IMG/VR virus record: IMGVR_UViG_3300044991_001618 | Location: 48,964-112,963 of that record | Origin: a virus | Direction: 5' to 3' (one strand) | Length of the DNA: 64,000 nucleotides | Shown: piece by piece, positions 22,312 through 60,109 of the stretch | How positions within the stretch are numbered: position 1 is the stretch's first letter | How the letters are laid out: every line of letters starts with the position of its first letter | Program-made: the position numbers and the translations under genes | Notes under the pieces: model-generated | What the model saw: the letters and a program-made list of their open reading frames with translations, nothing else | What the model was told of the DNA's origin: nothing | The model's database searches: none

Positions 22312-23532
22312 TTATTTAATTAGTGACTTATAAAATTCTGCTCTATTTTTTGTTACAGTAATTAAGGAATATGTATCCTTTACTGTTTCATATAAATTTT
22401 CTCCAAGGTCTTGTACTAAGTTGGGATTCTTCAGTAACTTTTCAATATACTTTGCCCAATCAACCCCATTCCTATCAGCATCAACAAGCAAAGCATTCCC
22501 CCCCTTTACAAAAGTACCTCTATCTAATCCATGTTTCAAATCAATCGTATAAGGACCAAAGTTTGAGGCTATTAATGCTTTTTTATAAAACCCAGCTTCA
22601 ATTACTTTTAATTGCGACTTCATTTCATTAAAAATGTGATTCTTTATTGGTGCTAAAGATATGTCAAATTTTGCATAATTCTTAGCATATGCAGTAACAG
22701 GTTTTGTCCACACTCTTAAATAAGCCTCATTATTTTCTTTATCATAAGGTTCTTGTACAAATTTAAACAAATATTTTTTATAATCCTCACTTATTGTAGA
22801 ATATTTTTGTGTAAATATTTCTTCATATCTTGCCCATACAGTTTCTTCTGGTTTAATATTTCTTTTCTTTTGCTCTTTTGTTTCAGAATTAATTTCAGTA
22901 ACAGAACCCCTAGTATCAAATCCACATAATACAAATTGTAATTTATTTGAATATTTTGTTAATGAACTAAATGGTTTATCTAAAATCATTAAATCATGTT
23001 GATGACTAGACCCACCAAGCCAACCCACTCTAACCCTATCAGATTCAAGGGTTGGCTCATTAAATTGGGGGTCATTTGGATTTATAGCATTTGGAAACAC
23101 AAAAACATTTTTATTATATTTTTTGATTAAATCTGCATATAATTTTGTTGTTGTTGTAACATATTTTGCTGCTTTTAAATTTTCAATTATTTTTTCATTT
23201 ATTTTATGAATTTTTATAATCTCATGTATTGGGTGATCCTTTGTTGGCATCCAATAATCATCAATATCACAAATTGTAATTATACCCATATTATTTAATG
23301 TTAATATAAGGCTCTTTGCTTTATCAAAATCATGACCAATACTTCTATGGAAAGCAACAATTTCATAATTCTTCCAAAAGTTCATATCATCCATTGGGGG
23401 TTCATAATCAATATCTATGTGAAATTCACCAGAATATTCTGATTGTAAGAAAAGATGGGGGTCAATTGAGCGGAATTTTCCAACCCCAGAGCGGTCAGAT
23501 GGGACTACTAAAACTTTTATTTGTTTACTCAT
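22312..23532 (-). CDS. GT-B glycosyltransferase
   Basis: DIDD, GWLGGSSH..DL, DISLAP, FNEMKSQLKVIEAG. Confidence 0.8.
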   Translation of the reverse strand: MSKQIKVLVVPSDRSGVGKFRSIDPHLFLQSEYSGEFHIDIDYEPPMDDMNFWKNYEIVAFHRSIGHDFDKAKSLILTLNNMGIITICDIDDYWMPTKDHPIHEIIKIHKINEKIIENLKAAKYVTTTTKLYADLIKKYNKNVFVFPNAINPNDPQFNEPTLESDRVRVGWLGGSSHQHDLMILDKPFSSLTKYSNKLQFVLCGFDTRGSVTEINSETKEQKKRNIKPEETVWARYEEIFTQKYSTISEDYKKYLFKFVQEPYDKENNEAYLRVWTKPVTAYAKNYAKFDISLAPIKNHIFNEMKSQLKVIEAGFYKKALIASNFGPYTIDLKHGLDRGTFVKGGNALLVDADRNGVDWAKYIEKLLKNPNLVQDLGENLYETVKDTYSLITVTKNRAEFYKSLIK

Positions 23533-26192: not shown

Positions 26193-26247
26193 TTGACTTT
26201 TATTCATAAATATTCACTAAATACTATTTATTATAATAATAATATAA

Positions 26248-28002
26248 ATGAGTTATCAAAATATTAATCAATATAATTTTAATAAGATTGGATTTAGACC
26301 TGTAAATGAAATTATTGATATAAGTTTGGCTTCGGATGAGTTGAATTTTGATGAGGAAACTGTATTTTCATCAAATTTGATTGCTGAGAATGATGGGAAT
26401 AGGATGCCATTCAATTTTGATTTTAACTATTCTGGTAATTCAAGTGGATATTCATCAACAGATGTTATTGTTTCAAAAAATTATTATAATCCAGAAAATT
26501 ATAATTTAACAGCAAATACATACCAAAATAAAATTTCAATATGTGATATTGGATTAACCGGAATTGATAATGGATTAACCAATGTTATTTCTGGTCAAAC
26601 CATTGAAATAAATTATGGTTTATATACAAATACAAATGATATATATAATAGGTATAAATTTGATAGAAGATTAAAATTACACCCCATAACAGGGTTCACA
26701 ACAAGCACAAATAGAATATATAATGATAATAGTTATTCTTATAATATAACATCTGGAACAACATCAAGTCTCAAATATTCATCATTAAATGGTTCATTTT
26801 ATCAAGGATTTTATAGATTATTTGGTTATGATTATGAAATATTCCCAGAAAGACCAAATCTTGGCTGGACAGCAGAATTTGTATTAAAATATAGATGGAC
26901 AGGCGATACAAATGGTTTGAATGTAAGATATCCAAAAAATAAGGGGACATTCTTTTATTTAGGTGCAAGAGCAGAAAATAAGTTTTATCATTTTGCTGAT
27001 GGACATCCAGTGTCATATAGTGCATATACAAGACCAACATCTGGCTTAACTTGTTGGGATACTTGCAATTGTGATATAAATTATTCAGCATCCACATATT
27101 CAGCATCAACTTGTAATAAGGTATATCCAATCACAGGAATAACAAATCCAGATAAAGATGTTATATTTAATGAACCAAATCCCTTATATGATTCTGTTTC
27201 AAATGCACTATCACTTCAGTTAAGTGGTAATTCTGGCAACCCAATAGTTTGTGTAAAAACATTCACCCTAACAGGAACTTGCGAAACATCAGGTGCAACT
27301 ATAAATCAATGGTGCTCAACAAAAGGAATATTTGATGAATTTAAAAATACAACATATATCCAAGATGAAAATTGGGTTCAAATTGACGCAGTATTTGTTA
27401 GAGATAGACTAATTGAAAATTGTGATTTAAAAGAACTTGGGGGGTTAGGATTATTAGTCTCAAGGGAATATACTGCAACAACAACCAATAGAAGCATTGA
27501 ATTAATACAACCAAAATTAAGTGGTGAAACAAATGCAAGCATTGAAGTTGTTAATTTTGACCAATCATGGATTAATACAAAAAAATATAGAAATGGAAAT
27601 TTAAGAATATACATAAATGGTAAAATATTCTTCATCATTGATAATTTTGAGGAAATTATCCCAAGACCATTAAATACTCTAAAAGAAAGACAAATTGGCG
27701 TCCCCTTCAATATTTCAGTTGGGGGTGGCACACAAGGGCTTAAAGATTCTCTTACATTAAGTTCATGTACAAATAACACCCTAATACAAGACCCAGAATT
27801 ATTACCAACTGATATACTAAATAATACATCATATTCTGGTTTAACCACAAATATTACTCTTGAAGAAGAATTTGGGGGTAGTTTAATAGGTGATATGGGG
27901 GCATTTAGAATGTATGTTGAACCCTTAAATGCTGGTCAAATAAGGCATAATTTTAATATATTAAAAACAAAATATAATTTAATAAACCCATACATAAAGT
28001 AG
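26248..28002 (+). CDS. Putative virion structural protein (Ser/Thr/Asn-rich, LamG-like C-terminus)
   Basis: LRIYINGK and GDMGAFRMYVEPLNAGQIRHNFN resemble a LamG/ConA end; TATTTAT upstream. Confidence 0.55.
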   Translation: MSYQNINQYNFNKIGFRPVNEIIDISLASDELNFDEETVFSSNLIAENDGNRMPFNFDFNYSGNSSGYSSTDVIVSKNYYNPENYNLTANTYQNKISICDIGLTGIDNGLTNVISGQTIEINYGLYTNTNDIYNRYKFDRRLKLHPITGFTTSTNRIYNDNSYSYNITSGTTSSLKYSSLNGSFYQGFYRLFGYDYEIFPERPNLGWTAEFVLKYRWTGDTNGLNVRYPKNKGTFFYLGARAENKFYHFADGHPVSYSAYTRPTSGLTCWDTCNCDINYSASTYSASTCNKVYPITGITNPDKDVIFNEPNPLYDSVSNALSLQLSGNSGNPIVCVKTFTLTGTCETSGATINQWCSTKGIFDEFKNTTYIQDENWVQIDAVFVRDRLIENCDLKELGGLGLLVSREYTATTTNRSIELIQPKLSGETNASIEVVNFDQSWINTKKYRNGNLRIYINGKIFFIIDNFEEIIPRPLNTLKERQIGVPFNISVGGGTQGLKDSLTLSSCTNNTLIQDPELLPTDILNNTSYSGLTTNITLEEEFGGSLIGDMGAFRMYVEPLNAGQIRHNFNILKTKYNLINPYIK

Positions 28003-28054: not shown

Positions 28055-29305
28055 ATGAGTAAGATATTTGTTCAAATTGCATCTTATAGAGATTATTTAT
28101 TGGAATCAACCATAGAAGATATAATTTCAAATGCAAAAAACCCCAAGAACCTAGTTATTGCAATTGCACGACAATACCACCCAGATGATAAGTTTGGCAC
28201 ATTAGATAAATGGAGAAAAGATAAGAGATTCAAAATTATTGATATATTATATAATGAAACAAAAGGTGTTTGTTGGGCAAGAAACATGGTTCAACAATTA
28301 TATAATAATGAAGAATATACATTACAGATTGATTCCCACATGCGTTTTGAACAAAATTGGGATGATATTTTAATTAAAATGATTAAGCAACTTCAAAAAT
28401 CTGGCTACCCAAAACCATTATTAACAGGGTATGTATCCTCTTTTGACCCAGATAATGATCCAGAGGCAAGGTCAAAAGAACCTTGGCGAATGCTATTTGA
28501 TAGATTCATTCCAGAAGGTGCAATGTTTTTTTTACCTGATACTATTAAAAATTGGCAAAATTTAAGTCAGCCAGTTTCTTCAAGATTTTATTCTGCACAT
28601 TTTTGTTTCACACTTGGCATATTTTCAAAGGAGGTTCAGCATAACCCAGAATATTATTTTCATGGTGAAGAAATCTCAATTGCTGCAAGAGCATATACAC
28701 ATGGTTATGATTTATTTCATCCACATAGATTAACTGTTTATCATGAATATACAAGAAAGAACAGAACAAAACAATGGGATGATGATAAGGAGTGGGTTGA
28801 TAAAAATAATAAAAGCCATTTAATTAATAAGAAACTTTTTGGGATGGATGGCTTGGTTCAGGAGGGTCATAATGGTTTGTATGGATTTGGTTCTGTTCGA
28901 ACATTAAGGGATTATGAGAGGTATGCTGGGATTTTATTTTCAAGAAGGGCTATTCAAGAGGAGACATTAAAACATTCTTACCCCCCAAATACATATAATT
29001 ATGAAACGGAGGAAGATTGGTTAAATTCATTTTCAAGCATATTTAAACATTGTATTGATGTGTCTTATAATTCAGTTCCAGAGAAAGATTATGATTTTTG
29101 GGTGGTTGCATTCCATGATGAGAATGATGAAACAATATATCGAAAAGACGCAGATAAGGATGAAATTAATAGAATGTTAAATGACCCCGACCATTACTGT
29201 AAAATATGGAGGGAATTCAATGCGATAAGGCAGCCAAAGTATTGGGTTGTTTGGCCTCATAGTGAATCTAAAGGTTGGTGTGATAAGATAAGTGGTAATT
29301 TTTAA
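28055..29305 (+). CDS. GT60-like polypeptide GlcNAc-transferase (copy 1)
   Basis: IFVQIASYRD, KGVCWAR, LQIDSHMRF..NWD, FHGEE, RAYTHGYD: motifs of the Gnt1-type GlcNAc transferase family. Confidence 0.82.
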   Translation: MSKIFVQIASYRDYLLESTIEDIISNAKNPKNLVIAIARQYHPDDKFGTLDKWRKDKRFKIIDILYNETKGVCWARNMVQQLYNNEEYTLQIDSHMRFEQNWDDILIKMIKQLQKSGYPKPLLTGYVSSFDPDNDPEARSKEPWRMLFDRFIPEGAMFFLPDTIKNWQNLSQPVSSRFYSAHFCFTLGIFSKEVQHNPEYYFHGEEISIAARAYTHGYDLFHPHRLTVYHEYTRKNRTKQWDDDKEWVDKNNKSHLINKKLFGMDGLVQEGHNGLYGFGSVRTLRDYERYAGILFSRRAIQEETLKHSYPPNTYNYETEEDWLNSFSSIFKHCIDVSYNSVPEKDYDFWVVAFHDENDETIYRKDADKDEINRMLNDPDHYCKIWREFNAIRQPKYWVVWPHSESKGWCDKISGNF

Positions 29306-29315
29306 TTTAATATAT

Positions 29316-30590
29316 ATGTTTAGTATAATAAACCATATAATAGCTGAAAAAGGATATTACATTAATTTGGATAACTCAATAGATAGGAGAGTTAGGGTTG
29401 AGGAACAAATTGAGAAATATAATATTAATGGATTAGAAAGATTCCCAGCATTGACTGATTCTTGGCATCAATACTCTTGCACCAAATCTCATTTGGCAAT
29501 ATTACAGAAATGTTTTGATGAAAATATTGAAACAGTAATGATTTTTGAAGATGATTTTCAGATATATGATGAATGTAAATTTGCTCACAATACACTTAAT
29601 TTAAATGATTGTTTAACTAGTGTTGTTAATGATTTAAATTTGGTTGATTGGGATGTTATATTGTTTGGCTGCAACCCAAGAACTTATTTAATACCTATAA
29701 CAAATAATTTGGCAATTAACTCTAAAAGTACAGGTGCTTGGGCTTATCTCATTAAAAAGAAGGCATATAAATACATTTTAGATAATTTAAATTATGGACG
29801 TGATTTATTGGCTATAGATGATTTTTTACCACTATTGAATCAAAGAGGATTCACATCTTTGACCACCATACCATTAACCATTCATCATGGTGTTAATTTA
29901 GTATCAACATTACAACCAAGAGAACCTGTCAACTATAATGTTATGATAGAGGGAAATTATTATAATTATATTTATAATTATGTTACAGATAAAAGTCTTA
30001 CATATGATACTTATCAAATTGAACAAGAAATAACAGTTGTGATAACAGGTAAATTTATCAATGACTTCATATCACATTTAAGATATTCATTAATGTCAAT
30101 TCCCCCAACCATAGAGAAATGCAGATTTCTAATTATATATGACATATTGGATTATTCAGCATCTCACAATAGCATTATTCAAGTATATGATTATTTCAAA
30201 AATAGAAACAAATCAATAAATTGTGATATTAGATTTTCTACTGAAAACAATAGAAATAATTTACTATTAGAGTTAATTAAAACAAAATATTTTATTCATT
30301 TAGAACATGGCTGGGTATTCTTGAATAATGATATCAACTTTAAAGAAATGATAAATAATCTAAACAATAATGAAAGCATTAATGGATTTTGGTTTAATCA
30401 TGGCCAAGATGAGGCAAATAATACCCCAACCATATTTAGAACATCAACATATACCAATAATTACAATTTGCAAATGTATGATGAAAATATAATGGTTACA
30501 CATATAAATCACCAAGAATTAGAAAACCCAATTCTTAAAAATATTGCAAATGAATTTATTAAAAATAATCCTTTAAAAACATATGATTAA
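29316..30590 (+). CDS. GT25-like glycosyltransferase with additional C-terminal GT-A-like domain
   Basis: YYINLD.S.DRR, C.KSH, MIFEDD, AYLI, AID; start placed at MFSII. Confidence 0.72.
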   Translation: MFSIINHIIAEKGYYINLDNSIDRRVRVEEQIEKYNINGLERFPALTDSWHQYSCTKSHLAILQKCFDENIETVMIFEDDFQIYDECKFAHNTLNLNDCLTSVVNDLNLVDWDVILFGCNPRTYLIPITNNLAINSKSTGAWAYLIKKKAYKYILDNLNYGRDLLAIDDFLPLLNQRGFTSLTTIPLTIHHGVNLVSTLQPREPVNYNVMIEGNYYNYIYNYVTDKSLTYDTYQIEQEITVVITGKFINDFISHLRYSLMSIPPTIEKCRFLIIYDILDYSASHNSIIQVYDYFKNRNKSINCDIRFSTENNRNNLLLELIKTKYFIHLEHGWVFLNNDINFKEMINNLNNNESINGFWFNHGQDEANNTPTIFRTSTYTNNYNLQMYDENIMVTHINHQELENPILKNIANEFIKNNPLKTYD

Positions 30591-31249
30591 TGAAATTTTT
30601 ATTCAAATTTCCATCCAGAGGGAGGTCAAATAAATTCAAGGAAACATTGCAATTACATTTAATGCATTTGTCAAATAAAAATGAATACAAATTCATATTC
30701 ACTTTTGATGAAGATGATGATACAATGAATAATGATGATATTAAAAACTTTATAAAAACTTTAAATATTGATTTTAAAATATTTTATGGTCAAAGCAAAA
30801 ATAAAATAGAAGCAATAAATGCAAATTTAAGTGATGAGGATTATGATATTTTAATTTTAATAGCTGATGATATGATTCCACAAGTTATGGAATATGATGA
30901 GATAATAAGAAACATTATTGAAACATCAGAAAATGGTACAGATACTATTATACATTTCAATACAACTAGATGGGCAAATCTTCTTGATGTTTGGTGTATA
31001 ATGGGAAAGAAATATTATGATAGATTTAAATACATTTATAATCCTGTGTATAAGAGTATTTATGCGGATAATGAATATACTGAGGTTGCTCAAATTTTAG
31101 ATAGATACATTTTTTCTGAAATCATAGCATTCAACCATAATTGGGATTCAGATGAAACAACCTTAAAAAGTTGGGGGCATAATCAAGAAGATGAGAATAT
31201 TTATAATTCAAGAAAAAATGAAAATTTTGATTTAAAAAATGGTAAATAA
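30590..31249 (+). CDS. GT2-like glycosyltransferase; paralog of 15340-16005
   Basis: KFPSRGR, ILIADDMIP, YKS.YADNE. Confidence 0.65.
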   Translation: MKFLFKFPSRGRSNKFKETLQLHLMHLSNKNEYKFIFTFDEDDDTMNNDDIKNFIKTLNIDFKIFYGQSKNKIEAINANLSDEDYDILILIADDMIPQVMEYDEIIRNIIETSENGTDTIIHFNTTRWANLLDVWCIMGKKYYDRFKYIYNPVYKSIYADNEYTEVAQILDRYIFSEIIAFNHNWDSDETTLKSWGHNQEDENIYNSRKNENFDLKNGK

Positions 31250-31907
31250 AAAAATAATATCTTTTTCCTTGTGGGGTGATAATCCAAAATATACCTTGGG
31301 TGCAATTAAAAATGCTAAATTAGCTAGTACAATTTACTCCAATTGGATATGTAGATATTATATTGGTCTTTCAACCCCTACTGAAATTGTGGATGAATTA
31401 AAACATATGAATAACACAGAGATTGTAATTATGAATGAGCAAGGTGAGTGGAATTCTATGTTCTGGAGGTTTTTACCTATTGGTGATAATGATATTGATG
31501 TTATGTTATCAAGAGATTGTGATTCAAGATTATCAATTAGAGAAAAGTTATGTGTTGATGAATTTATAAATTCAGATAAAATGTTTCATAATATGATAGA
31601 CCACCCATTCCATAATGGAATTATGGGTGGCATGTGGGGTGCAAAAAAAGGAGTTTTAAATAATATGAAAGAATTAATTGATAATTGGCCAAAAACAAAT
31701 CAATGGCAAACAGATCAATCTTTTTTAAATACAATGGTAACGCCTATAATTGGTGATAATATTTTTATACATGATTCCATCAATAAAAGAAATTTTCCAA
31801 TAAAAAGAAAAGATTATGAATATGTTGGGGAATCATATAATGGATATGATGAAAGGTCTGAACATTGGTGTGTTTTTACTTTTGATGAATACAAACATTT
31901 GGATTAA
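31239..31907 (+). CDS. Putative GT-A glycosyltransferase; paralog of 14690-15343
   Basis: ISFSLWGDNPKYTLGAIKNA identical to the paralog; SRDCDSR, MGGMWG. Confidence 0.6.
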   Translation: MVNKKIISFSLWGDNPKYTLGAIKNAKLASTIYSNWICRYYIGLSTPTEIVDELKHMNNTEIVIMNEQGEWNSMFWRFLPIGDNDIDVMLSRDCDSRLSIREKLCVDEFINSDKMFHNMIDHPFHNGIMGGMWGAKKGVLNNMKELIDNWPKTNQWQTDQSFLNTMVTPIIGDNIFIHDSINKRNFPIKRKDYEYVGESYNGYDERSEHWCVFTFDEYKHLD

Positions 31908-31909
31908 AT

Positions 31910-33583
31910 ATGAATAAATTAACATTAGTAACTGGACTCTGGGATATAAAAAGAGATTCATTGGGTGATGGTTGGAATCGCTCATATAATCATTATTTGG
32001 ATAAATTAAAACAATTATTAAGTGTTGATAATAATTTAATTGTATTTGGTGATAATGAATTAAAGAAATTTGTTTTTCAACATAGAAGTGAGAATAATAC
32101 TTTTTTTATTGAAAGAAATTTGGATTGGTTTAAAAATAATAATTACTTTGATTTAATCCAAAAAATAAGAACAAACCCCCAATGGTATCAACAAGCTGGG
32201 TGGTTAGAAGAATCCACACAAGCAAAGTTAGAATATTATAATCCCCTAGTTATGTCCAAGATGTTCTTGTTGCATGATGCAAAGATTATGGATCCGTTTA
32301 ATTCAGAATATGTGTTTTGGATTGATGCTGGATTAACAAATACAGTTCACCCTGGATATTTCACTCATGATAAGGTTTTGGATATGTTGCCAAAATATAT
32401 ATCAAAATTTAGTTTTGTTTGTTTTCCATATGAAACAACAAGTGAAATACATGGTTTTGATTATAATAAGATGGTATCTATTGTTGGCAAACCAGTTAAC
32501 AAAGTGGCAAGAGGTGGTTTCTTTGGTGGACCCAAAAACACAATAAGTGATATTAATTCAATATATTATGGCTTATTAATGGATACATTAGGTCAGGGTT
32601 ATATGGGTACAGAGGAATCCTTATTTTCAATAATGACATATAAACATTCAGATTTAATAAATTATTTTGAGATTGATGGGAATGGTTTGTTTGGAAAGTT
32701 TTTTGAGGATTTAAAGAATGATGTATTGGAAATAAAATCAGAGAATAAAATGATAAATAGCACGCCTTTGGATACATCAAAAGTTGGCTTATATGTAATA
32801 GGGTTTAATTCCCCCAACCAATTTGAAACATTGATTAAATCTATGTTAGATTATGATGCAAATTTTATTGATAAGACGCAGAAATATTTATTGGATAATT
32901 CAACAGATTTATCAACAACCCCAAGATATATTGAGTTATGTGAGTTGTATGGATTTGAGCATATAAAGAAAGATAATCTTGGAATATGTGGTGGAAGGCA
33001 ATTCATTGCGGAGCATTTTAATGATTCTGATTTGGATGTGATGATTTTCTCTGAGGATGATATGAACTTCTATAAGAAACCAGGTGAGGTATGCAGAAAT
33101 GGATTTAATAGATATACCCCCAACTTATATAACAAGTGTTTGAATATTATTCAGAAGGAGAATTATAATTTCTTAAAGATTAATTTTAGTGAATTTTATG
33201 GGGACAATTCAACACAATGGAGTTGGTATAATGTTCCGCAAAATGTTAGGGTTGAGAATTGGCCAGATAAACCAAATCTACCTATTCAAGGATTGGATCC
33301 AAATGCACCAAGAACAAAGTTCAATAATATAAAATCAATGGAGGCTTTGCCTTATGCTGATGGTGAGATTTATTATTGCAACTGGACACATTTCATAACA
33401 AAGGCTGGAAATAAAAAAATGTTTATTGATACAAAATTTGCCCATCCTTATGAAAATACATGGATGTCATTTATGTACCAAGAAACAGTTAAGAATGTTA
33501 TTAAGCCTGGAATATTATTATTGACCCCTATTGAACATCATAGGTTTGACCATTATGCTGGTGAATTAAGAAGGGAGAATTAA
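31910..33583 (+). CDS. HtrL/YibB (WlaTC)-like glycosyltransferase fused to a second GT-A-like domain
   Basis: TLVTGLWDI, FWIDAG, GGFFGG; C-half LLDNS, FSEDD. Confidence 0.68.
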   Translation: MNKLTLVTGLWDIKRDSLGDGWNRSYNHYLDKLKQLLSVDNNLIVFGDNELKKFVFQHRSENNTFFIERNLDWFKNNNYFDLIQKIRTNPQWYQQAGWLEESTQAKLEYYNPLVMSKMFLLHDAKIMDPFNSEYVFWIDAGLTNTVHPGYFTHDKVLDMLPKYISKFSFVCFPYETTSEIHGFDYNKMVSIVGKPVNKVARGGFFGGPKNTISDINSIYYGLLMDTLGQGYMGTEESLFSIMTYKHSDLINYFEIDGNGLFGKFFEDLKNDVLEIKSENKMINSTPLDTSKVGLYVIGFNSPNQFETLIKSMLDYDANFIDKTQKYLLDNSTDLSTTPRYIELCELYGFEHIKKDNLGICGGRQFIAEHFNDSDLDVMIFSEDDMNFYKKPGEVCRNGFNRYTPNLYNKCLNIIQKENYNFLKINFSEFYGDNSTQWSWYNVPQNVRVENWPDKPNLPIQGLDPNAPRTKFNNIKSMEALPYADGEIYYCNWTHFITKAGNKKMFIDTKFAHPYENTWMSFMYQETVKNVIKPGILLLTPIEHHRFDHYAGELRREN

Positions 33584-33626: not shown

Positions 33627-34883
33627 ATGAAAATATTTGTTCAAATTGCAAGTTATCGTGACCCTGAATTAGTTAAAACCATTGAGGATATTCTGGATAA
33701 GGCAAAGAAGCCAAAGAACCTTGTTTTTGCCATTGCAAGGCAATATGCTGATGAGGATGGATTTGATAATCTTGATAAATGGAGAAAAGATAAAAGATTT
33801 AAAATATTGGATATTCCATATAATGAATCAAAGGGTGCTTGTTGGGCAAGAAATTTACTTCAGCAATTATATAATGATGAGGAATATACCCTTCAACTTG
33901 ATTCACATATGCGTTTTAATCAAGATTGGGATGACACATTAATAAAAATAATTAAGGGCTTGCAGAAAGATGGTTATAAGAAGCCTTTATTAACTTCCTA
34001 TGCTTGTTCTTATGAACCAACAAATGACCCAGCAGGGAGGATACAAGACCCTTGGAGGATGGTTTTTGATAGGTTTGCTCCAGAAGGTAATGTCTTTTTT
34101 ATGCCAGAAACAATTGATGAATGGAAAACATTAAAGAAACCAATACCAGCAAGATTTTATTCAGCACATTATGCTTTTACCCTTGGACAATTTGCCAAGG
34201 AGGTTCAGCATAATCCAGAATATTATTTTCATGGTGAGGAGATTTCAATTGCAGTTAGAGCTTATACTTGGGGATATGATTTATTCCATCCCCATATTCC
34301 AATCATATATCATGAATATACAAGAAAGGGAAAGGTTAAACAATGGGATGATGATAAGGAATGGGTTAAACGTAATGATAGGGCACATTATCTAAATAAA
34401 AGATTGTTTGGGGTTGATGGTGTTCAACAAGAGGGTCATGATGGATTATATGGTTTTGGTCCGGTTAGAACATTAAGAGATTATGAAAAATATGCTGGTA
34501 TTCATTTTTCCAAACGTGCTGTTCAACAATGGACAATTGATAAGAAGAACCCCCCAGTTAAAGAGGAGTATAAGACAGAGGAAGAATGGGAAAATAGTTT
34601 TTCAATTATATTTCGGCATTGCATTGATGTCCAATATGATTCAGTTCCAGAAAAGGATTATGAATATTGGGTGGTTGCATTCCATGATGAGAATGATAAC
34701 ACATTATATAGAAAAGATGCAGATATTAATGAGATAAATTCAATGATGAATGATTCAGATAAGTATTGCAAAATATGGAGAGATTTCCAAACAACAAAGC
34801 AGCCAGATTATTGGGTTGTTTGGCCTTATTCAAAATCAAAAGGCTGGTGTGACAGATTGACAGGTAAATTAAATATAATATAA
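33627..34883 (+). CDS. GT60-like polypeptide GlcNAc-transferase (copy 2)
   Basis: IFVQIASYRDPE, SKGACWAR, LQLDSHMRF, FHGEEISIA. Confidence 0.82.
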   Translation: MKIFVQIASYRDPELVKTIEDILDKAKKPKNLVFAIARQYADEDGFDNLDKWRKDKRFKILDIPYNESKGACWARNLLQQLYNDEEYTLQLDSHMRFNQDWDDTLIKIIKGLQKDGYKKPLLTSYACSYEPTNDPAGRIQDPWRMVFDRFAPEGNVFFMPETIDEWKTLKKPIPARFYSAHYAFTLGQFAKEVQHNPEYYFHGEEISIAVRAYTWGYDLFHPHIPIIYHEYTRKGKVKQWDDDKEWVKRNDRAHYLNKRLFGVDGVQQEGHDGLYGFGPVRTLRDYEKYAGIHFSKRAVQQWTIDKKNPPVKEEYKTEEEWENSFSIIFRHCIDVQYDSVPEKDYEYWVVAFHDENDNTLYRKDADINEINSMMNDSDKYCKIWRDFQTTKQPDYWVVWPYSKSKGWCDRLTGKLNII

Positions 34884-37937: not shown

Positions 37938-40900
37938 TTAGTTAAAGATGTATCTCAATCCCAATTGCGCTTGCCAAGCATTACCTACACTAATTGTTTT
38001 AACAAAAGTTTTGTCTAATAGTTGTGTTGAACCATCAACAACTCTTGTTGCCATTCTGTATGTTGGAACACCATCAGCAGAAACAGATGCTACTGTTAAT
38101 GGACTTGCTGTACCGAAACTACCAGATGTTGTAGAATATCCAACACCCCAAGCATTATTCAATATATTTCCAAAGTTAAGAATATCTGCTCTAAATTGCA
38201 AGGTATTTCTTTTTCCTTTTACATTAACATATACTTCTTGAACCGCAGATAAATCAACTCTTGTTAACCAAGGGAAGTATCCACCATTTCTTTCAGCGTA
38301 TGTTCCTTTGCGTGATGATAAATATTCATCATTTGAAATTAGATTGTTTAACGCCTCTTGTTGTTGTGCTGGGGTGAAAGTCTTTCCACCAGCAGTAAGT
38401 GTTGCAAAAGTGATTTCTGTTGCATTATTTGGCACATAAATGAGGTCGTTAATTTGTCCATCACCATTTAAGTCATTTCCATAAATGTAACTGATTTTAC
38501 TACCACTTGCAGATGTTGCACCTAATGTTAATTCAGTTGAACCTCCAAATTTACCGCCATAGTTAATTCTATAATTAACATATCCAATAAATCTATGACG
38601 TAAATCATTATCTGTGAATGATGGGGCTAAGAAATTTTGGCCACCAACACCAGGTGCATTTGCCTGAACTGTACTACCTACTGATTGTAGATCTGTTGAC
38701 CTTGCGTTTGTATAGCCAACCATACCACCTAAACCATTAACCGCTGGTTTCTCAATCTTTGTAGTAAGAGCATAAGAATAACCCCTATCTGTATTTGTTA
38801 ATAAGAAAGCATTTGAAATTGTTGGATTTAAGAATCTTGCTATTGCAACTGTATTTGCAGCACCAGAACCTGAACTTGTAACACCTGATGCTGGATAACG
38901 TGGTCTTCCATCTGACAAGAATCTATCAGCACTTTTTAAATTTGCGTCAATATAACGTAGTCCAGATAATGTTTTACCATAAATACCTTCAACTGTTCCG
39001 ATTAATCCAAATGGTAATTTTTGGTCAACTGCAATATTTGATTTCCAAACTGATGGGTATTTTAAATCCTCACTTGATGCGTTAATAACATAAGGTGGTA
39101 ATTTTGTAATATCAGTTGTTGTTGGTGCAAATCTGCTTGGGTCAGTTGTGAATGGGTATGCAGTTGTATTTGTTACGTTAATAACCGCTGTATTAACACC
39201 ATTATTACCCAGTTGATTAGATACCAAAACTTGTGGAACTCTTGAAACAAAGATACCCGTTCCACCCCTAACTTGGGTTGTTTGGTCACCATTAACATCA
39301 TAATTAAATCCAATTCTTGGGGATAACAATAATGTTGGTTTTGGGAATGCACTTGTGTTAATTTTTGTTGGTTGACCATTTTTATCTCTGAATGTTAAAC
39401 CACCAACAACTGGATTATAAAAATCTTCCGCAGTTGAATTGTCATACATAACAACATCCCCACGCAAACCAACTGTTAATTTGACTAAATCAGTTAATTC
39501 ATACTCATCTTGTGCATAAGCACTAAATGTGGAAACTTTTAAAGATTGTAATGGTTCAATACCCCCAGGTAATAATGAGTATCTTAGATTGTAACGGTTT
39601 AGAGTTACTGGTGATACTGGATTACTTGGGTTGTTTTTAAATTCTAATGCTGCTTTTTTGAAATCATCAATAGAATTATAAACATAAACACCATTTGATG
39701 CTGGGAAGAAAACGTTATTTGATTGGAAATATTCATAAGCCAAACCAAATGTGAAGTAATGCTTACCAGATGACAAATTAAAATTGTTTGTTAAATTTAA
39801 AGTACTGTAATTAAGTTTGTTGTTTGGTGTGAAGGGGTCAAAGCCAACAGTTGTATAGGTTGTACCATCTTTAAGAATATCTATTGTTGGAAATAAATCT
39901 GTACGATATCTTCTATCTTCAATTTGTTTATTGAATGTAGCAATAAAGTTGTTTGACTTCTTTGAAGAAAGAATTGAGTTTAATTCAAATGCAACAGAAC
40001 GAGTATTATCTTGGATGATATATCCAGTGTTTTCCCCAGAGATAGCAAATGCTGAATTTTGACGATTACCATTACCAGCTGTATTGCTACTGTTTGAACT
40101 ACTAATAACTTGTTCTGATTCTGAATTATGATGAGAATAACGAAGAGATGCTTTGTGCTTTCTACTAATGTTATAATCTAAACGAACAAGTCCTTTTGTA
40201 CTTTTAACATCATTATTAAAGTTATCAAGTGAACCAAGGTCATAATTAAAGTTTGTTTTCATAAATGAGGACAAATCTTTTAAATCACTTTCTGTTACAC
40301 GAGATACGTTACCAGTAGCACCTGGCTTGTTTGTTTGCCAACTTAATGCTGGATTTGTTCCAGTAAATTGTTCAGCATTAACAAAAATAAATAATTTGTT
40401 TTTGATGATTGGTGCACCAATTCTAAAACCAGTTGTTTTTTCATCTAGGAAGATTGGTGGTAGTTTGATACCATTTACAGTTTTACCTACTAAATCACTT
40501 GACCTAAATAATCTGTAAAATGAACCAGAAATATCATTTGTACCAGAACGAGTTACTGCATTAACACCTGCACCAACAAAGCCAGATTGTCTAACATCAA
40601 AGGGGGCAATATTTAATTGTACCTCTTCAACAGCATCAAGAGAAATTGCGGTTGTTCCTGTTCTACCACCAGCAGCAGCAGATGACCCAAGACCAAATCC
40701 ATTATTAAATACTGAACCATCAATTGTGAAATTGTTAAAACGGCTGTCTTGCCCACCAAATGAACGACCATTACCATAAGCATTATACTTTGTAATGTCA
40801 TCAATTGTTCTACCAATTGTTGGTAAACTATTAATTGTACTTGAACTAAATTGAGTTGATGCCCCAGTTCTTTGACTAGAAAAAATGGCATTTTTGTTTG

Positions 40901-41282
40901 CCGTAATTGTTACCCCTTGCAAATCATAAGATGATTCAACTAAGGAAAAATTCAATGTTTTGGTTGTTCCCAAATTTAATATAACATTGGATTGGGTTTT
41001 TGTGGCATATCCAACATAACTAACTGTTATGTTATAAGGGCCACCAACACGCATCCCTGGAATTCTATATGTACCATCAATATCAGTTGATGTACCATAA
41101 CTTGTTCCAGATGGTAAGTGAACAGCCTCAATGGTTGCACCAACCAAAACCTCACCTTTTGGGTCACTTGTTGGTACTGAAGGTGTTGTTACCACACCAG
41201 TTATTGCTGAAGTTGTTACTTGAGCATAACTCATACTAAACGTCATAAATGTTAATAATAACGTTTTAAAAATGTTTTTCAT
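37938..41282 (-). CDS. TonB-dependent outer-membrane receptor (Oar-like, N-terminal carboxypeptidase-regulatory-like domain)
   Basis: Signal peptide, [25 protein letters not shown], plug ([30 protein letters not shown]), [10 protein letters not shown]-terminal QLGLRYIF. Confidence 0.92.
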
Positions 41283-48646: not shown

Positions 48647-49113
48647 TGGATAATAACACAATAAAAAACATATTTAAATTCCTTGAAGATGAAGGAGAAC
48701 ATAGAGCACCTTTTATGTGGAAATGGAAAAATAATATACCATTAACAGAAGAAGACTTAAATGTTGAAAGTGATTTGAATTTCTATAGATTAGAAATAAA
48801 ATCATTACCAAAAGGATTAAAAATCCATGGTCATTTGGGTTTATATAAAACAAATATAACTTCATTACCAAAAGGCTTGGAAGTTGGGGGCGATTTGAAT
48901 TTAAATGAAACAAAAATAAAATCATTACCAAAAGGATTGAAAGTTGGTGGCAATTTATATTTAACATATTGTGGAAAATTAACTTCATTACCAGAAGGGT
49001 TAAAAGTTGGTGGTGATTTGTATATACATGCCACACCATTAACAAAATATTTAGATGATGATTTAAGACAAATGGTTAAACCTGGATTTATAAAAGGAAT
49101 AATATATAGGTAA
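48646..49113 (+). CDS. LRR array gene 4 (about 4 repeats)
   Basis: Same repeat; N-cap shared with gene 2, C-cap shared with gene 3. Confidence 0.88.
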   Translation: MDNNTIKNIFKFLEDEGEHRAPFMWKWKNNIPLTEEDLNVESDLNFYRLEIKSLPKGLKIHGHLGLYKTNITSLPKGLEVGGDLNLNETKIKSLPKGLKVGGNLYLTYCGKLTSLPEGLKVGGDLYIHATPLTKYLDDDLRQMVKPGFIKGIIYR

Positions 49114-55981: not shown

Positions 55982-56302
55982 ATGGCATCAGCATTAAGGA
56001 TAACAAGCCTAAATTTGAGTGGAGAAATTGTTTTTGTAACATTACTACAAAACAATATCACTTATATTATTGGCGAAAAAGTTATCCCTTTTGATGTTTA
56101 CCCAAGACCTGAAACAAGTAAATTAAGTGGACTATATACTCTATATGTTCCAAACTACCTTACAAGTTATGATTTAATTATTCCAGAAGTAGTTGATCCA
56201 ACACCAACACCAACTGTGACCCCTACTAACACTATTACACCAACTATTACACCAACTCAAACAATAACACCTACTAACACTATTACACCAACTCAAACAT
56301 AA
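55982..56302 (+). CDS. Small protein with C-terminal Thr-Pro (mucin-like) tract, apparently truncated
   Basis: PTPTPTVTPTNTITPTITPTQTITPTNTITPTQT*; the repeat continues in frame after the TAA. Confidence 0.7.
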   Translation: MASALRITSLNLSGEIVFVTLLQNNITYIIGEKVIPFDVYPRPETSKLSGLYTLYVPNYLTSYDLIIPEVVDPTPTPTVTPTNTITPTITPTQTITPTNTITPTQT

Positions 56303-56965: not shown

Positions 56966-59900
56966 ATGGCAAATCAAAAAGTATTCGTATCCCCTGGTGT
57001 ATACACTTCTGAAACAGATTTAACGTTTGTTTCCCAGAGTATTGGTGTAACCACATTAGGAATGGTCGGTGAAACAATTAAAGGTCCTGCATTTGAGCCT
57101 ATATTCATTACAAGTTATGATGAATTTCAAACTTATTTTGGTGGAACATCACCTGAGAAGTATATAAACACACAAATACCAAAATATGAATCTGCATATA
57201 TTGCCAAGTCATATTTGCAGCAATCAAATCAAATGTATGTTACAAGAGTATTGGGATTATCTGGTTATGATGCTGGCCCATCTTGGTCAATAACAACAAT
57301 TGCAAATGTTAATCATTCAACTGTTGGTTTAACCGGTGGAACTGGTGTTGGTTCATCTATCTCAATAACATTTACTGGAACAACTGGAACAACTGGGACA
57401 TTTGTAATAACAAGTGCTACGTATCCAAATGGTATAAGTGGATCATTATTTTCTGGTGATACTTATACAACAAGCAATGGTTCAACATCAACATTCTATG
57501 ATGATTTAAAGACATTTGCAAATGATGTGGCTTTATCAACTTCATTAACTGGTCAAACATCAACTTATGGTTCATTACCAGTATCTGTGTATAATTCAAT
57601 CACAGGTTCAACAAAATCTGGATTAACTGAATATAATTATTTTGGAACAACAATTCCTTTGGGTAGTGATGGTAAGCCAGCCAATGAAAATGATTTGTGG
57701 TATTATGCAACATTTTCTAATTCTGGGAATGATTATACAGGTTATTCATTTTATTACAACACATCTAATTTTAATGTTTCAAGTGGTTCATTCACTGGAA
57801 CAGTAATTGGTAACACTTATACATTCACTGGAACAGCATATACAGATTATAATGATATGGTTGTGGCAACAATTAGGTCAAGAGGAATAACAAGTTATTC
57901 TTCCACAAATCATGGTCAGATTTATAGTTTAAGTGCATTAACTATTGATACAAATAATAGTACAACTATAAGTGAGACACCATTTGGTAATTTTGTTTTA
58001 AGTGGAAAAACAACATCAAACAATAATTACACATTTAATGTATCATTAAAAAATACCAATTCAAATTATATTGCAAATGTATTGGGAGTAGATAATTTTG
58101 GCAAGGATAGAAATGATGTGCCAATTTTTGTTGAGGAGCATTATCCAACCTTATTAAATCAGGCTTATAGACTTGGTTATATTAAAGGATTAAAAACTAA
58201 TTTAACTTATTTGCCATCAGCAAGAAGTGGTAGTACTACATCAATTGGGTGGTATCTTGAAAAATATCAATCACCAAAAACACCATTTGTTGTTTCTGAA
58301 TTGAGAGGAAATAAAGTTTATAACTTATTCAAGTTCATTTCAATATCTGATGGCAATTCAGCAAATACTGAAGTTAAGGTTTCAATTATTAATATGTCAT
58401 TTAAGAATAGAACATTTGATGTATTGGTTAGAAGTTATTATGATTCAGATTCAGCACCAGTTGTATTGGAGAAATATACAAATTGCACATTAGATGAATT
58501 ACAAAATAGTTTCATTGGAAAGAAGATTGGAACAAGTGATGGCAAATATAATTTGGTTTCAAAATATATTATGCTTGAAATGGGTGATGAATTTCCATCT
58601 GATGCAATTCCTTGTGGATTTATGGGATACCCACACAGAAAGTATAATGACGCATTAACACCAAATTTATTATATAAGACAAGATATTATTTTAATAATG
58701 AGGTTGTTAACAATGAACCATTTGCAGCATCAAATGCTGTATCTGCTGACAATATAAAAAGAACATATCTTGGATTTTCAACAAATTATGGATATGATAA
58801 TTCTTTATTAAACTATAAGGGTAAACAAAATCCAGCAAGTATTATTTCTGATAGTTCAGAATGGAATGTGGTAACAAAAGGTTTCCATATGGATTCAGGT
58901 GCAACAGTTGTTACAATAGCAAATAGTTATACAACAAGTGGTCAAACAGCATTTGAGGTTGGTAGTGGAAGTTTTAATTCAGAGCCAGAAACAAATTCAA
59001 ATCCATATTATTACCTATATTCAAGAAAGTTCACTTTATTATTTGAGGGTGGTTTTGATGGATGGGATGTTTATTCTGAAAGAAGAACAAATGGAGATAC
59101 ATACCAAATTGGTGGTGTGGATTATATGAGGGGTGCGTTATCCATTTCAGGCAAATATGCAGCTGCAACAGGTCAAGGAACATTTAAAGAAATTACAGAA
59201 GGTGATGGAACAATTGATTTTGCAACAACAGACTATTATGCATATTTTAAGGGAATTTTAACATATAAAAATCCAGAATCAACAAATATAAATATCTTTG
59301 TTACACCAGGTATTGATTATATTAATAATAGTAATTTGGTTGAAAATGCCATTGATATGGTTGAAAGTGATAGAGCAGATTCAATTTATATTGTTACAAC
59401 ACCTGATGCAAATTTATTAACAACTGATGTGAACAATGTTATTTATCCCCAAGAATCAATTGTTTCTTTGGAGGAAACAAATATTGATTCAAATTATACT
59501 GCAACATATTACCCTTGGATTTTGGTTAGAGACCAAGCAAATAATACCCAAGTTTATATTCCACCAACAGCAGAAGTTTGTAGAAACTTGGCATTAACTG
59601 ACAATGTGGCATTCCCCTGGTTTGCATCAGCAGGTTATAATAGGGGTTTAGTTAATTCAGTTAAAGCAAGATTAAAGTTAACACAAGATGATAGAGATAC
59701 TTTATATCAAGGAAGAATAAATCCAATTGCAACATTCTCTGATGTGAATACTGTGATTTGGGGAAATAAAACATTGCAAGTTAGAGAATCAGCATTAAAC
59801 AGAATTAATGTTCGTAGGTTGTTATTGCAAGCACGTAAATTAATCTCTGCGGTTGCTGTGAGGCTTCTTTTTGAACAAAATGACCAGATAGTACGTCAAC

Positions 59901-60109
59901 AGTTTTTGGATACGGTAAACCCAATCTTAGATGGTATTAGAAGGGATCGTGGTTTAACTGATTTCCGTGTTACGGTTTCAAATGACCCAGAGGATATTGA
60001 TAGAAATACAATGAGTGGAAAAATATATATTAAACCTACAAGGTCTCTTGAGTTTATTAGCCTTGAATTTGTGATAACCCCTACTGGTGCTTCATTTGAA
60101 GACGTATAA
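56966..60109 (+). CDS. Contractile tail sheath protein
   Basis: SPGVY..E.D, G...KGP, YYPW, PWFASAG..RG, LY..RINPI, WGNKTLQ, RINVRRLL, IYIKPTRSLEFI. Confidence 0.95.
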   Translation: MANQKVFVSPGVYTSETDLTFVSQSIGVTTLGMVGETIKGPAFEPIFITSYDEFQTYFGGTSPEKYINTQIPKYESAYIAKSYLQQSNQMYVTRVLGLSGYDAGPSWSITTIANVNHSTVGLTGGTGVGSSISITFTGTTGTTGTFVITSATYPNGISGSLFSGDTYTTSNGSTSTFYDDLKTFANDVALSTSLTGQTSTYGSLPVSVYNSITGSTKSGLTEYNYFGTTIPLGSDGKPANENDLWYYATFSNSGNDYTGYSFYYNTSNFNVSSGSFTGTVIGNTYTFTGTAYTDYNDMVVATIRSRGITSYSSTNHGQIYSLSALTIDTNNSTTISETPFGNFVLSGKTTSNNNYTFNVSLKNTNSNYIANVLGVDNFGKDRNDVPIFVEEHYPTLLNQAYRLGYIKGLKTNLTYLPSARSGSTTSIGWYLEKYQSPKTPFVVSELRGNKVYNLFKFISISDGNSANTEVKVSIINMSFKNRTFDVLVRSYYDSDSAPVVLEKYTNCTLDELQNSFIGKKIGTSDGKYNLVSKYIMLEMGDEFPSDAIPCGFMGYPHRKYNDALTPNLLYKTRYYFNNEVVNNEPFAASNAVSADNIKRTYLGFSTNYGYDNSLLNYKGKQNPASIISDSSEWNVVTKGFHMDSGATVVTIANSYTTSGQTAFEVGSGSFNSEPETNSNPYYYLYSRKFTLLFEGGFDGWDVYSERRTNGDTYQIGGVDYMRGALSISGKYAAATGQGTFKEITEGDGTIDFATTDYYAYFKGILTYKNPESTNINIFVTPGIDYINNSNLVENAIDMVESDRADSIYIVTTPDANLLTTDVNNVIYPQESIVSLEETNIDSNYTATYYPWILVRDQANNTQVYIPPTAEVCRNLALTDNVAFPWFASAGYNRGLVNSVKARLKLTQDDRDTLYQGRINPIATFSDVNTVIWGNKTLQVRESALNRINVRRLLLQARKLISAVAVRLLFEQNDQIVRQQFLDTVNPILDGIRRDRGLTDFRVTVSNDPEDIDRNTMSGKIYIKPTRSLEFISLEFVITPTGASFEDV

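Follow-up and report, generated by a model that had tools for sequence, protein, structure and literature searches.

A conserved [S/T]-[G/A]-x-[S/T] motif in virion proteins of uncultured freshwater phages: a candidate recognition site for phage-encoded modification

The window analysed here is a stretch of 64,000 nucleotides (positions 48,964 to 112,963 of IMG/VR virus record IMGVR_UViG_3300044991_001618), and the coordinates below are those of the window. Its source is a single viral contig of 112,963 bp with a G+C content of 29%, which encodes a myophage tail sheath, a T4-type major head protein, a portal, a terminase, a DNA polymerase and a helicase. Related contigs of up to 326 kb (estimated completeness 100%) indicate that the contig represents about one third of a jumbo-phage genome. 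The source is an uncultured freshwater jumbo myophage with a genome of about 300 kb and, probably, a Bacteroidota host; judged by the capsid protein, its nearest cultured relatives are a Microcystis phage, Flavobacterium phages and a Rhodothermus phage, at ~35-44% identity. The subject of this study is a gene located between a glycan-biosynthesis island and two GT60-type glycosyltransferase genes, the product of which (the focal protein) contains a large excess of the tetrapeptide motif [S/T]-[G/A]-x-[S/T].

26248-28002, plus strand: focal gene, an intact open reading frame whose translation is a 584-aa jelly-roll virion protein with 17 motifs

The motif had been drawn from the sequence in an earlier note on this DNA, which counted 17 matches; the same 17 tetrapeptides were recovered, with overlaps allowed, against 1.85 expected from composition. 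This approximately ninefold excess is stronger than that note's own estimate of two to three chance matches had implied. Exactly four of the 21 [ST][GA] dipeptides in the protein (TGID, TAEF, SGNP and TGTC) lack Ser or Thr at position +3, as had been reported, the other 17 having it, and the matches are indeed dispersed rather than tandem, apart from SGNS-SGYS and one YSAST-YSAST duplication. The comparison with shuffled sequences that the note had called for upheld the enrichment: 17 matches were reached in none of 20,000 whole-protein shuffles (mean 1.85, maximum 9) and in none of 5,000 local shuffles, in which windows of 10-30 residues kept their composition and gave 2.2-2.9 matches. After an [ST][GA] dipeptide the frequency of Ser or Thr is 0.81 at +3, compared with 0.19-0.33 at all other offsets, and because the signal is specific to +3 the excess is not a local composition effect. 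An unbiased scan of ~16,000 residue-class patterns ranked [ST][GA]x[T/ST] at the top, over five orders of magnitude ahead of the next. For N-x-S/T the protein has 14 matches against 11.2 expected, which is no enrichment. No account of the [ST][GA]x[ST] motif was found in searches of the literature.

The motif is conserved among relatives of the focal protein. In 121 homologues with 55-85% identity the mean number of motifs is 14.4, against 3.5 expected, and ten sites retain the motif in 85-100% of them. The Ser and Thr residues swap at positions 0 and +3, as do Gly and Ala at some sites. The sites are as follows, with the secondary structure assigned by DSSP where given.

26431-26442, plus strand: residue 62, SGNS; motif in 103 of 121 homologues, with S/T and G/A interchange
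26590-26601, plus strand: residue 115, SGQT; motif in 121 of 121
26689-26700, plus strand: residue 148, TGFT; motif in 120 of 121
26899-26910, plus strand: residue 218, TGDT; motif in 117 of 121
27019-27051, plus strand: residues 258 (SAYT) and 265 (SGLT), in the Cys-rich loop region; motif in 111 and 104 of 121; coil, with lower model confidence (predicted local distance difference test, pLDDT)
27133-27144, plus strand: residue 296, TGIT; motif in 120 of 121
27223-27234, plus strand: residue 326, SGNS, at a strand end; motif in 113 of 121
27289-27300, plus strand: residue 348, SGAT, at a strand start; motif in 121 of 121
27835-27846, plus strand: residue 530, SGLT, in a loop; motif in 115 of 121
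26443-27531, plus strand: seven lineage-private or partly conserved sites at residues 66, 88, 169, 280, 285, 409 and 425 (starting at nucleotides 26443, 26509, 26752, 27085, 27100, 27472 and 27520); motif in 2-63 of 121

The excess extends to more distant proteins, with 1,584 motifs against 365 expected in 148 cluster representatives that share no more than 50% identity, and to the non-conserved sites of the core, where it is moderate (29% against 17% expected). In the enriched proteins the extended consensus is hydrophobic-[S/T]-[G>A]-x-[T>>S]. One subclade of homologues, by contrast, contains only 0-1 motifs per protein, which is the chance level, and keeps the same jelly roll, so that the motif is dispensable for the fold. 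The substitutions in these motif-poor proteins differ between sites. At site 115 the flanking Thr/Ser are kept and the Gly is replaced with Lys, Glu or Asn, at site 218 only the +3 Thr is kept, and at site 148 the Gly is kept while the Thr becomes Asp or Asn. The glycine of the latter site, G149, is the sole motif glycine conserved throughout the superfamily, six of about seven motif glycines not being conserved outside the motif-rich clades. These sequence comparisons identify the excess as lineage-specific.

The focal protein has no match by sequence in Pfam, PHROG or the PDB, tblastn against GenBank phages returned no cultured relative, and megablast of the region returned none. A model of the protein was obtained with AlphaFold2 (AF2) from a diverse alignment (pLDDT 84.5, predicted template modelling score 0.88) and was used in preference to the poor model from a shallow alignment (pLDDT 53). 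The model displays a single jelly roll of the ConA/LamG type, a two-sheet β-sandwich that superposes on solved members of this fold. VIA gave Z scores of 13-15.7 and root mean square deviations of 3.0-3.5 over 185-230 residues, the partners being the Pan3 cyanophage tailspike, a CBM40, the carbohydrate-binding domain of a GH43 and lectin-like jelly rolls, and Foldseek matched the model to LamG/ConA-like entries in the PDB and in BFVD. Among the BFVD matches are virion structural proteins of cyanophage S-PM2. A predicted lectin-type fold does not by itself indicate a carbohydrate- or ligand-binding function. The jelly-roll core of ~220 residues is spread over residues 40-580 of the model, the other ~360 residues forming loop insertions. 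The conserved sites are located in coil directly before or after strands, or in long loops, whereas two of the dipeptides outside the motif lie at a helix start (TGID) and in a core strand (TAEF). The YSAST-YSAST duplication (motif copies at residues 280 and 285; window 27079-27111, residues 278-288) is a tandem private to the protein of this phage, inside a Cys-rich loop of low confidence.

Most homologues extend beyond the core into a Pro-Thr linker followed by a C-terminal domain that varies (LamG_3 or DUF285, for example); the copy in the window is a natural short form, P0002-P0004 being similar in length. In relatives, large fibre proteins are encoded next to the focal homologue, one of them with PHROG tail-fibre and collagen-like matches. 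A TATTTAT sequence at window positions 26222-26228 forms a box at -23 of the focal gene, and the same heptamer is found 18-35 nucleotides before the start codon of 31 of the 134 genes of the contig, compared with about 5 expected from its density, including those for the tail sheath, the terminase, a 500-aa protein and an adaptor-like product. The sequence is a candidate late-promoter box. On the basis of the fibre genes that follow in relatives, and of the box that is shared with structural genes, the focal product is taken to be a virion protein associated with the fibres or the baseplate, its gene being the first of the tail-fibre module.

The motif excess is confined to a small number of proteins. 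Across the whole contig the focal protein is a clear outlier (Poisson P about 1e-11), followed by the tail sheath and the 500-aa protein, which has 8 motifs against 1.5 expected.

56966-60109, plus strand: tail sheath, 1047 aa (phrog_23, E 9e-60), with a secondary excess of 17 motifs against 6.1 expected, mostly in inserted domains

The remaining ~130 proteins of the contig, when pooled, contain 46 matches against 46 expected, and the major capsid protein (6 against 2.6) was counted as not enriched. Similarly, in four full genomes a few large proteins display a +3 signal of 0.42-0.81, while in the other 129-371 proteins per genome it stays flat at 0.12-0.17. By BLAST, most of the enriched proteins have no relationship to one another; the +3-specific signal appears in the insert domains of the sheath, in the 500-aa protein and its orthologues, and in an orthologous pair of 728 and 715 aa. 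The genome-wide comparison of structural with non-structural proteins, another check that had been proposed, thus places the excess in a few virion-type proteins and the rest at expectation. Two negative controls showed no signal: none of 32 T4 proteins, including the sheath gp18 (3 against 2.9), the baseplate proteins and the fibres gp34-37, has an excess, and nor does a Ser/Thr-rich 1114-aa outer-membrane barrel encoded in the window (6 against 7.0 expected).

The motif is short, in excess of composition and conserved in the proteins that would be its acceptors, as a sequon should be. It resembles a lineage-specific tag carried by some of the virion proteins more than a requirement for folding, and independence of the fold is what would be predicted for a recognition site. 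We tentatively favour the view, with a confidence that stops a little short of an even call, that the motif is an acceptor or recognition site for a phage-encoded modification, most plausibly O-glycosylation by a transferase of the adjacent glycan island that does not belong to GT60. In such a mechanism the loops and strand ends of the focal protein would display the lineage-specific hydrophobic-[S/T]-[G>A]-x-[T>>S] sequence, a soluble glycosyltransferase of the conserved island would O-glycosylate the motif Ser/Thr on assembled or assembling virion proteins, and the donor nucleotide sugars would be made by the phage. The GT60 enzymes would act separately, on the Pro-Thr linker tracts of fibre proteins. 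The earlier note had likewise read the motif as a site for phage-encoded modification of virion proteins; this part stands to the extent that the motif is real, conserved, confined to a few virion-type proteins and independent of the fold. GT60 as the reader is not supported, and the lack of an excess in the C-terminal domains counts against a sequon that marks every exposed surface.

The island that would supply the enzyme abuts the focal gene.

231-26207, minus strand: glycan-biosynthesis island of more than 23 kb, assigned by Pfam and PHROG matches
22312-23532, minus strand: 406-aa GT-B glycosyltransferase (phrog_7162), near the focal homologue in all three clades of related phages

It encodes two short-chain dehydrogenases/reductases (SDRs) of the GDP-mannose 4,6-dehydratase type, an epimerase, a GT11-like fucosyltransferase, several glycosyltransferases of the GT1, GT2 and GT4 types, a fused GT2_5+GT4 protein of 544 aa, FkbM methyltransferases, a PhyH dioxygenase, a KAS III-like enzyme and a cytidylyl/adenylyltransferase-like gene of the heptose pathway (phrog_7878). 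Parts of the island are syntenic in both motif-rich clades, and in both the focal gene adjoins it. The distribution of sugar-nucleotide genes follows motif load to some extent. PF16363 SDRs occur in 23 of 25 motif-rich genomes and in 4 of 25 genomes of the mostly motif-poor clade (Fisher 7e-8, kinship ignored), and within the latter clade genomes with a strong PF16363 match or a GT11-like gene contain more motifs than the others (2-11 against 0-5; Mann-Whitney p=0.002, kinship again ignored). No transferase tracks the motif perfectly across the genomes examined. The 406-aa GT-B enzyme, which in the motif-poor genome G009 is encoded immediately downstream of the focal homologue, is a core gene of the phage group and does not discriminate, because it is conserved even in motif-poor phages. 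PF00534 (GT1-type) occurs here and there in all clades, does not discriminate and was rejected. Subtracting the proteins of G009 from those shared by two motif-rich genomes (G026 and G047) was a weak test, since no more than 51 proteins are common to G009 and G026.

Several observations weigh against an acceptor site. The association with glycan genes (PF16363 and PF01531) is confounded by phylogeny and habitat and amounts to perhaps three to four independent contrasts, and the island might have a different role, in DNA hypermodification or in the glycans of the host envelope (a literature lead is bioRxiv 10.1101/2023.12.21.572611). The variable C-terminal extension domains of the homologues (23,096 residues), expected to be their most exposed regions, have no excess, 19% of their dipeptides completing the motif against 31% expected, and the motif therefore does not decorate all exposed surfaces. 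Non-virion proteins do not avoid the motif. The conserved sites are no more conserved than the rest of the 55%-identical core, and their x residues are conserved too, as is typical of structural positions. Finally, the D/E/N-G that replaces the motif in the motif-poor lineage at site 148 and at several sheath sites represents the classic equivalence of Asx-turns and ST-turns.

The last of these points leads to the strongest alternative, in which the motif is purely a structural turn, an ST-turn with a glycine cap at the strand/loop junctions of the jelly roll and the sheath inserts, to which nothing is attached. In ST-turn and Asx-turn motifs with glycine, Ser/Thr or Asp/Asn precedes Gly at the junctions of strands and loops. 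Lineages would then differ in the preferred polar residue, Ser/Thr in the freshwater clades and Asp, Glu, Asn or Lys in the other clade, and the exchange of Asp/Asn for Ser/Thr between phage lineages fits such a turn. Within the close clade Gly is invariant at seven sites, and at site 258 Asn and Asp alternate with Gly. In the sheath orthologues, at the sites that three motif-rich genomes have in common, the motif-poor genome has D/E-G-x-K/N, with the Gly kept. The superfamily-wide G149, the Asp/Asn at position 0 of site 148 in motif-poor homologues, the location of sites at strand ends and the C-terminal domains without excess all accord with a turn, and the motif-poor proteins are poorer in Ser/Thr overall (9-13% against 16-20%). 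However, a turn required by the fold should be conserved in all homologues, whereas a whole subclade folds with motifs at the chance level and G149 alone of the motif glycines is shared by the superfamily. Asp/Asn replaces Ser/Thr at the capping position between lineages (site 148 and the sheath) but almost never within the motif-rich clade. The secondary-structure context of the sites is mixed (C-ends of strands, N-ends of strands and long loops) rather than uniform, and the same tetrapeptide is enriched in BLAST-unrelated proteins of the same lineages. A generic turn also leaves unexplained the conserved +3 Thr, the coordinated loss in one subclade, and the absence of the signal from T4 structural proteins, from more than 1,200 other phage proteins and from the Ser/Thr-rich β-barrel. 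We consider this explanation less likely than the acceptor site, of which it is the most serious competitor.

A distinctly less probable alternative is that the exposed pairs of hydroxyls have another role, such as phosphorylation, acylation or ester cross-links, or form a repeated surface for contacts or ligand binding in virion assembly or in adhesion to polysaccharide. The restriction of the motif to virion proteins, its lineage specificity and the lectin-type jelly roll are all compatible with such a role, as is the fact that no transferase follows the motif perfectly. Conversely, no candidate kinase or acyltransferase came to light, the sites are spread across the entire fold with no single obvious patch, and the association with sugar-nucleotide genes favours glycosylation.

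A further alternative takes the neighbouring GT60 enzymes as the readers of the motif, which would then be a sequon at which GlcNAc is added to Ser/Thr. As the earlier note had observed, the focal gene lies immediately upstream of such a gene.

28055-29305, plus strand: GT60-type glycosyltransferase, copy 1 (PF11397; 228.5 bits, E 2.1e-67), 52 nucleotides downstream of the focal gene
33627-34883, plus strand: GT60-type glycosyltransferase, copy 2 (PF11397; 222.9 bits, E 1.1e-65), 5.6 kb downstream
29292-33583, plus strand: genes between the two copies, comprising a GT25-like gene (PF01755, E 8e-9), an HtrL_YibB-like gene (PF09612, E 8e-18) and two others
55982-56302, plus strand: 106-aa protein with the sole Pro-Thr tract (PTPTPTVTPTNT) that the Pro-Thr tract scan found in the 113-kb contig

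Both copies exceed the curated PF11397 cut-off of 21 bits. Known GT60 enzymes, from Dictyostelium and Trypanosoma cruzi, are α-GlcNAc transferases that act directly on polypeptide Ser/Thr or hydroxyproline (Hyp). Their acceptors, Thr/Pro-rich mucin-like tracts or the hydroxyproline of Skp1, do not resemble [ST]Gx[ST]. Fifty related contigs were searched for the family, 18 from the focal clade, 7 from a second, equally motif-rich clade and 25 from the mostly motif-poor clade. GT60 genes are present in 17 of the 18 focal-clade genomes, usually 0-8 kb from the focal homologue and in one case (G040) 57 kb away, but in none of the 7 genomes of the second motif-rich clade, two of which are 86% and 93% complete, and in none of the 25 mostly motif-poor genomes. 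The covariation across genomes that would be expected of a sequon and its enzyme is not observed for GT60. In these phages GT60 tracks one clade and Pro-Thr tracts: the GT60-positive genome G026 encodes nine proteins with such tracts, including the linker of the focal homologue itself and two small proteins adjoining GT60, whereas the scan found essentially none in the GT60-negative genomes G047 and G009. Such tracts correspond to the mucin-like acceptors of known GT60 enzymes. Recognition of the motif by GT60 is thus very improbable. From these distributions the motif is probably read by something other than the GT60 enzymes encoded beside it, and it is more likely that these glycosylate the Pro-Thr linker tracts of fibre proteins; the 106-aa protein is a candidate substrate. 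Chance or composition bias, the last alternative, might be suspected in a protein rich in Ser, Thr, Asn and Gly and can be dismissed in view of the shuffles, the +3 specificity and conservation across hundreds of homologues.

To our knowledge, glycosylation by a phage of its own particle has been shown so far only for a few mycobacteriophages, and we know of no sequon. In these phages, according to the summary in PMC12619734 of Freeman et al. (2023, Cell Host Microbe), phage-encoded glycosyltransferases O-glycosylate virion proteins of the same phage inside the cytoplasm of the host, and shielding of the particle is the proposed role of the glycans. In that account the glycans are located on the C-terminal tails of capsid and tail-tube subunits and no dispersed tetrapeptide sequon is described. 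The phages studied here differ in that, by the evidence of sequence, ~10 conserved internal sites occur in a jelly-roll protein of the fibre module, with further sites in the sheath, and the capsid protein is not enriched.

The general O-glycosylation system of Bacteroidota, which acts in the periplasm on exported proteins, recognizes D-(S/T)-(A/I/L/V/M/T) and requires the preceding Asp. The phage motif resembles this sequon in being short and in that the acceptor Ser/Thr is followed by a small or aliphatic residue; the sequon also belongs to the phylum of the probable host, and its glycans contain fucose (for fucosyltransferase context, see PMC8698959). The phage motif differs in the hydrophobic residue at -1, the Thr at +3 and its location in virion proteins that are assembled in the cytoplasm. 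The bacterial autotransporter heptosyltransferases (BAHTs) Aah and TibC hyper-heptosylate the autotransporters AIDA-I and TibA. This system is similar in that many turn Ser/Thr residues of a β-rich surface protein are O-glycosylated in the cytoplasm, and a heptose-pathway-like gene (phrog_7878) is found in the phage island. Its substrates are tandem 19-residue repeats, in contrast to dispersed sites, and no BAHT (GT9-type) homologue was identified here.

Taken to its full extent, the acceptor-site reading leads to a more specific proposal, which we regard as possible and hold with rather less confidence than the reading itself. In freshwater Bacteroidota jumbo phages a sequon φ-[S/T]-[G/A]-x-T (φ, hydrophobic) would direct the cytoplasmic O-glycosylation of folded tail and fibre proteins by a phage transferase that has yet to be recognized as acting on proteins, with phage-made nucleotide sugars, in parallel to a GT60/Pro-Thr pathway. 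If this is correct, virion glycosylation would be predictable from sequence in abundant, uncultured lake jumbo phages, the very large glycan gene islands of these phages would have a purpose, and the motif could be used with its enzyme as a small tagging system in cytoplasmic glycoengineering. Should the motif prove structural, it would still serve as a lineage marker and as a warning against taking adjacency to GT60 for a substrate relationship.

With respect to the host, the 1114-aa protein used above as a control (window 37938-41282, minus strand) contains a CarboxypepD_reg domain and an outer-membrane β-barrel (PF25183, E 1.7e-49). This predicted architecture, which resembles that of the SusC/TonB-dependent receptors typical of Bacteroidota, is an indication of the phylum infected and suggests that the phage remodels the envelope of its host; it fits a Bacteroidota host. 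Such a host has been proposed for a similar freshwater phage lineage (PMC12619734).

High motif counts in repeat proteins were set apart from those described above. In two G026 proteins the huge counts are a periodicity effect of collagen-like (Gly-Thr-Ser)n repeats, and these were excluded. A protein of 1706 aa in this complete relative (L170:7616-12736, minus strand, equivalent to G026:27616-32736) is 51% Ser/Thr and consists largely of (Gly-Thr-Ser)n, and a 794-aa tail-fibre protein of G026 with the same repeat is encoded between the focal homologue and GT60. In G009 the excess falls in repeat proteins containing I-S-A-x-T-E, another variety of the pattern, and these were given no weight as support. 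Three large repeat proteins of this genome (L186:13193-19638, minus strand, and L188:7880-11098, minus strand) contain I/V-S-A-x-T-E/D, with 24 matches against 3.5 expected in one of them, a pattern that looks like a repeated helical cap rather than a loop motif.

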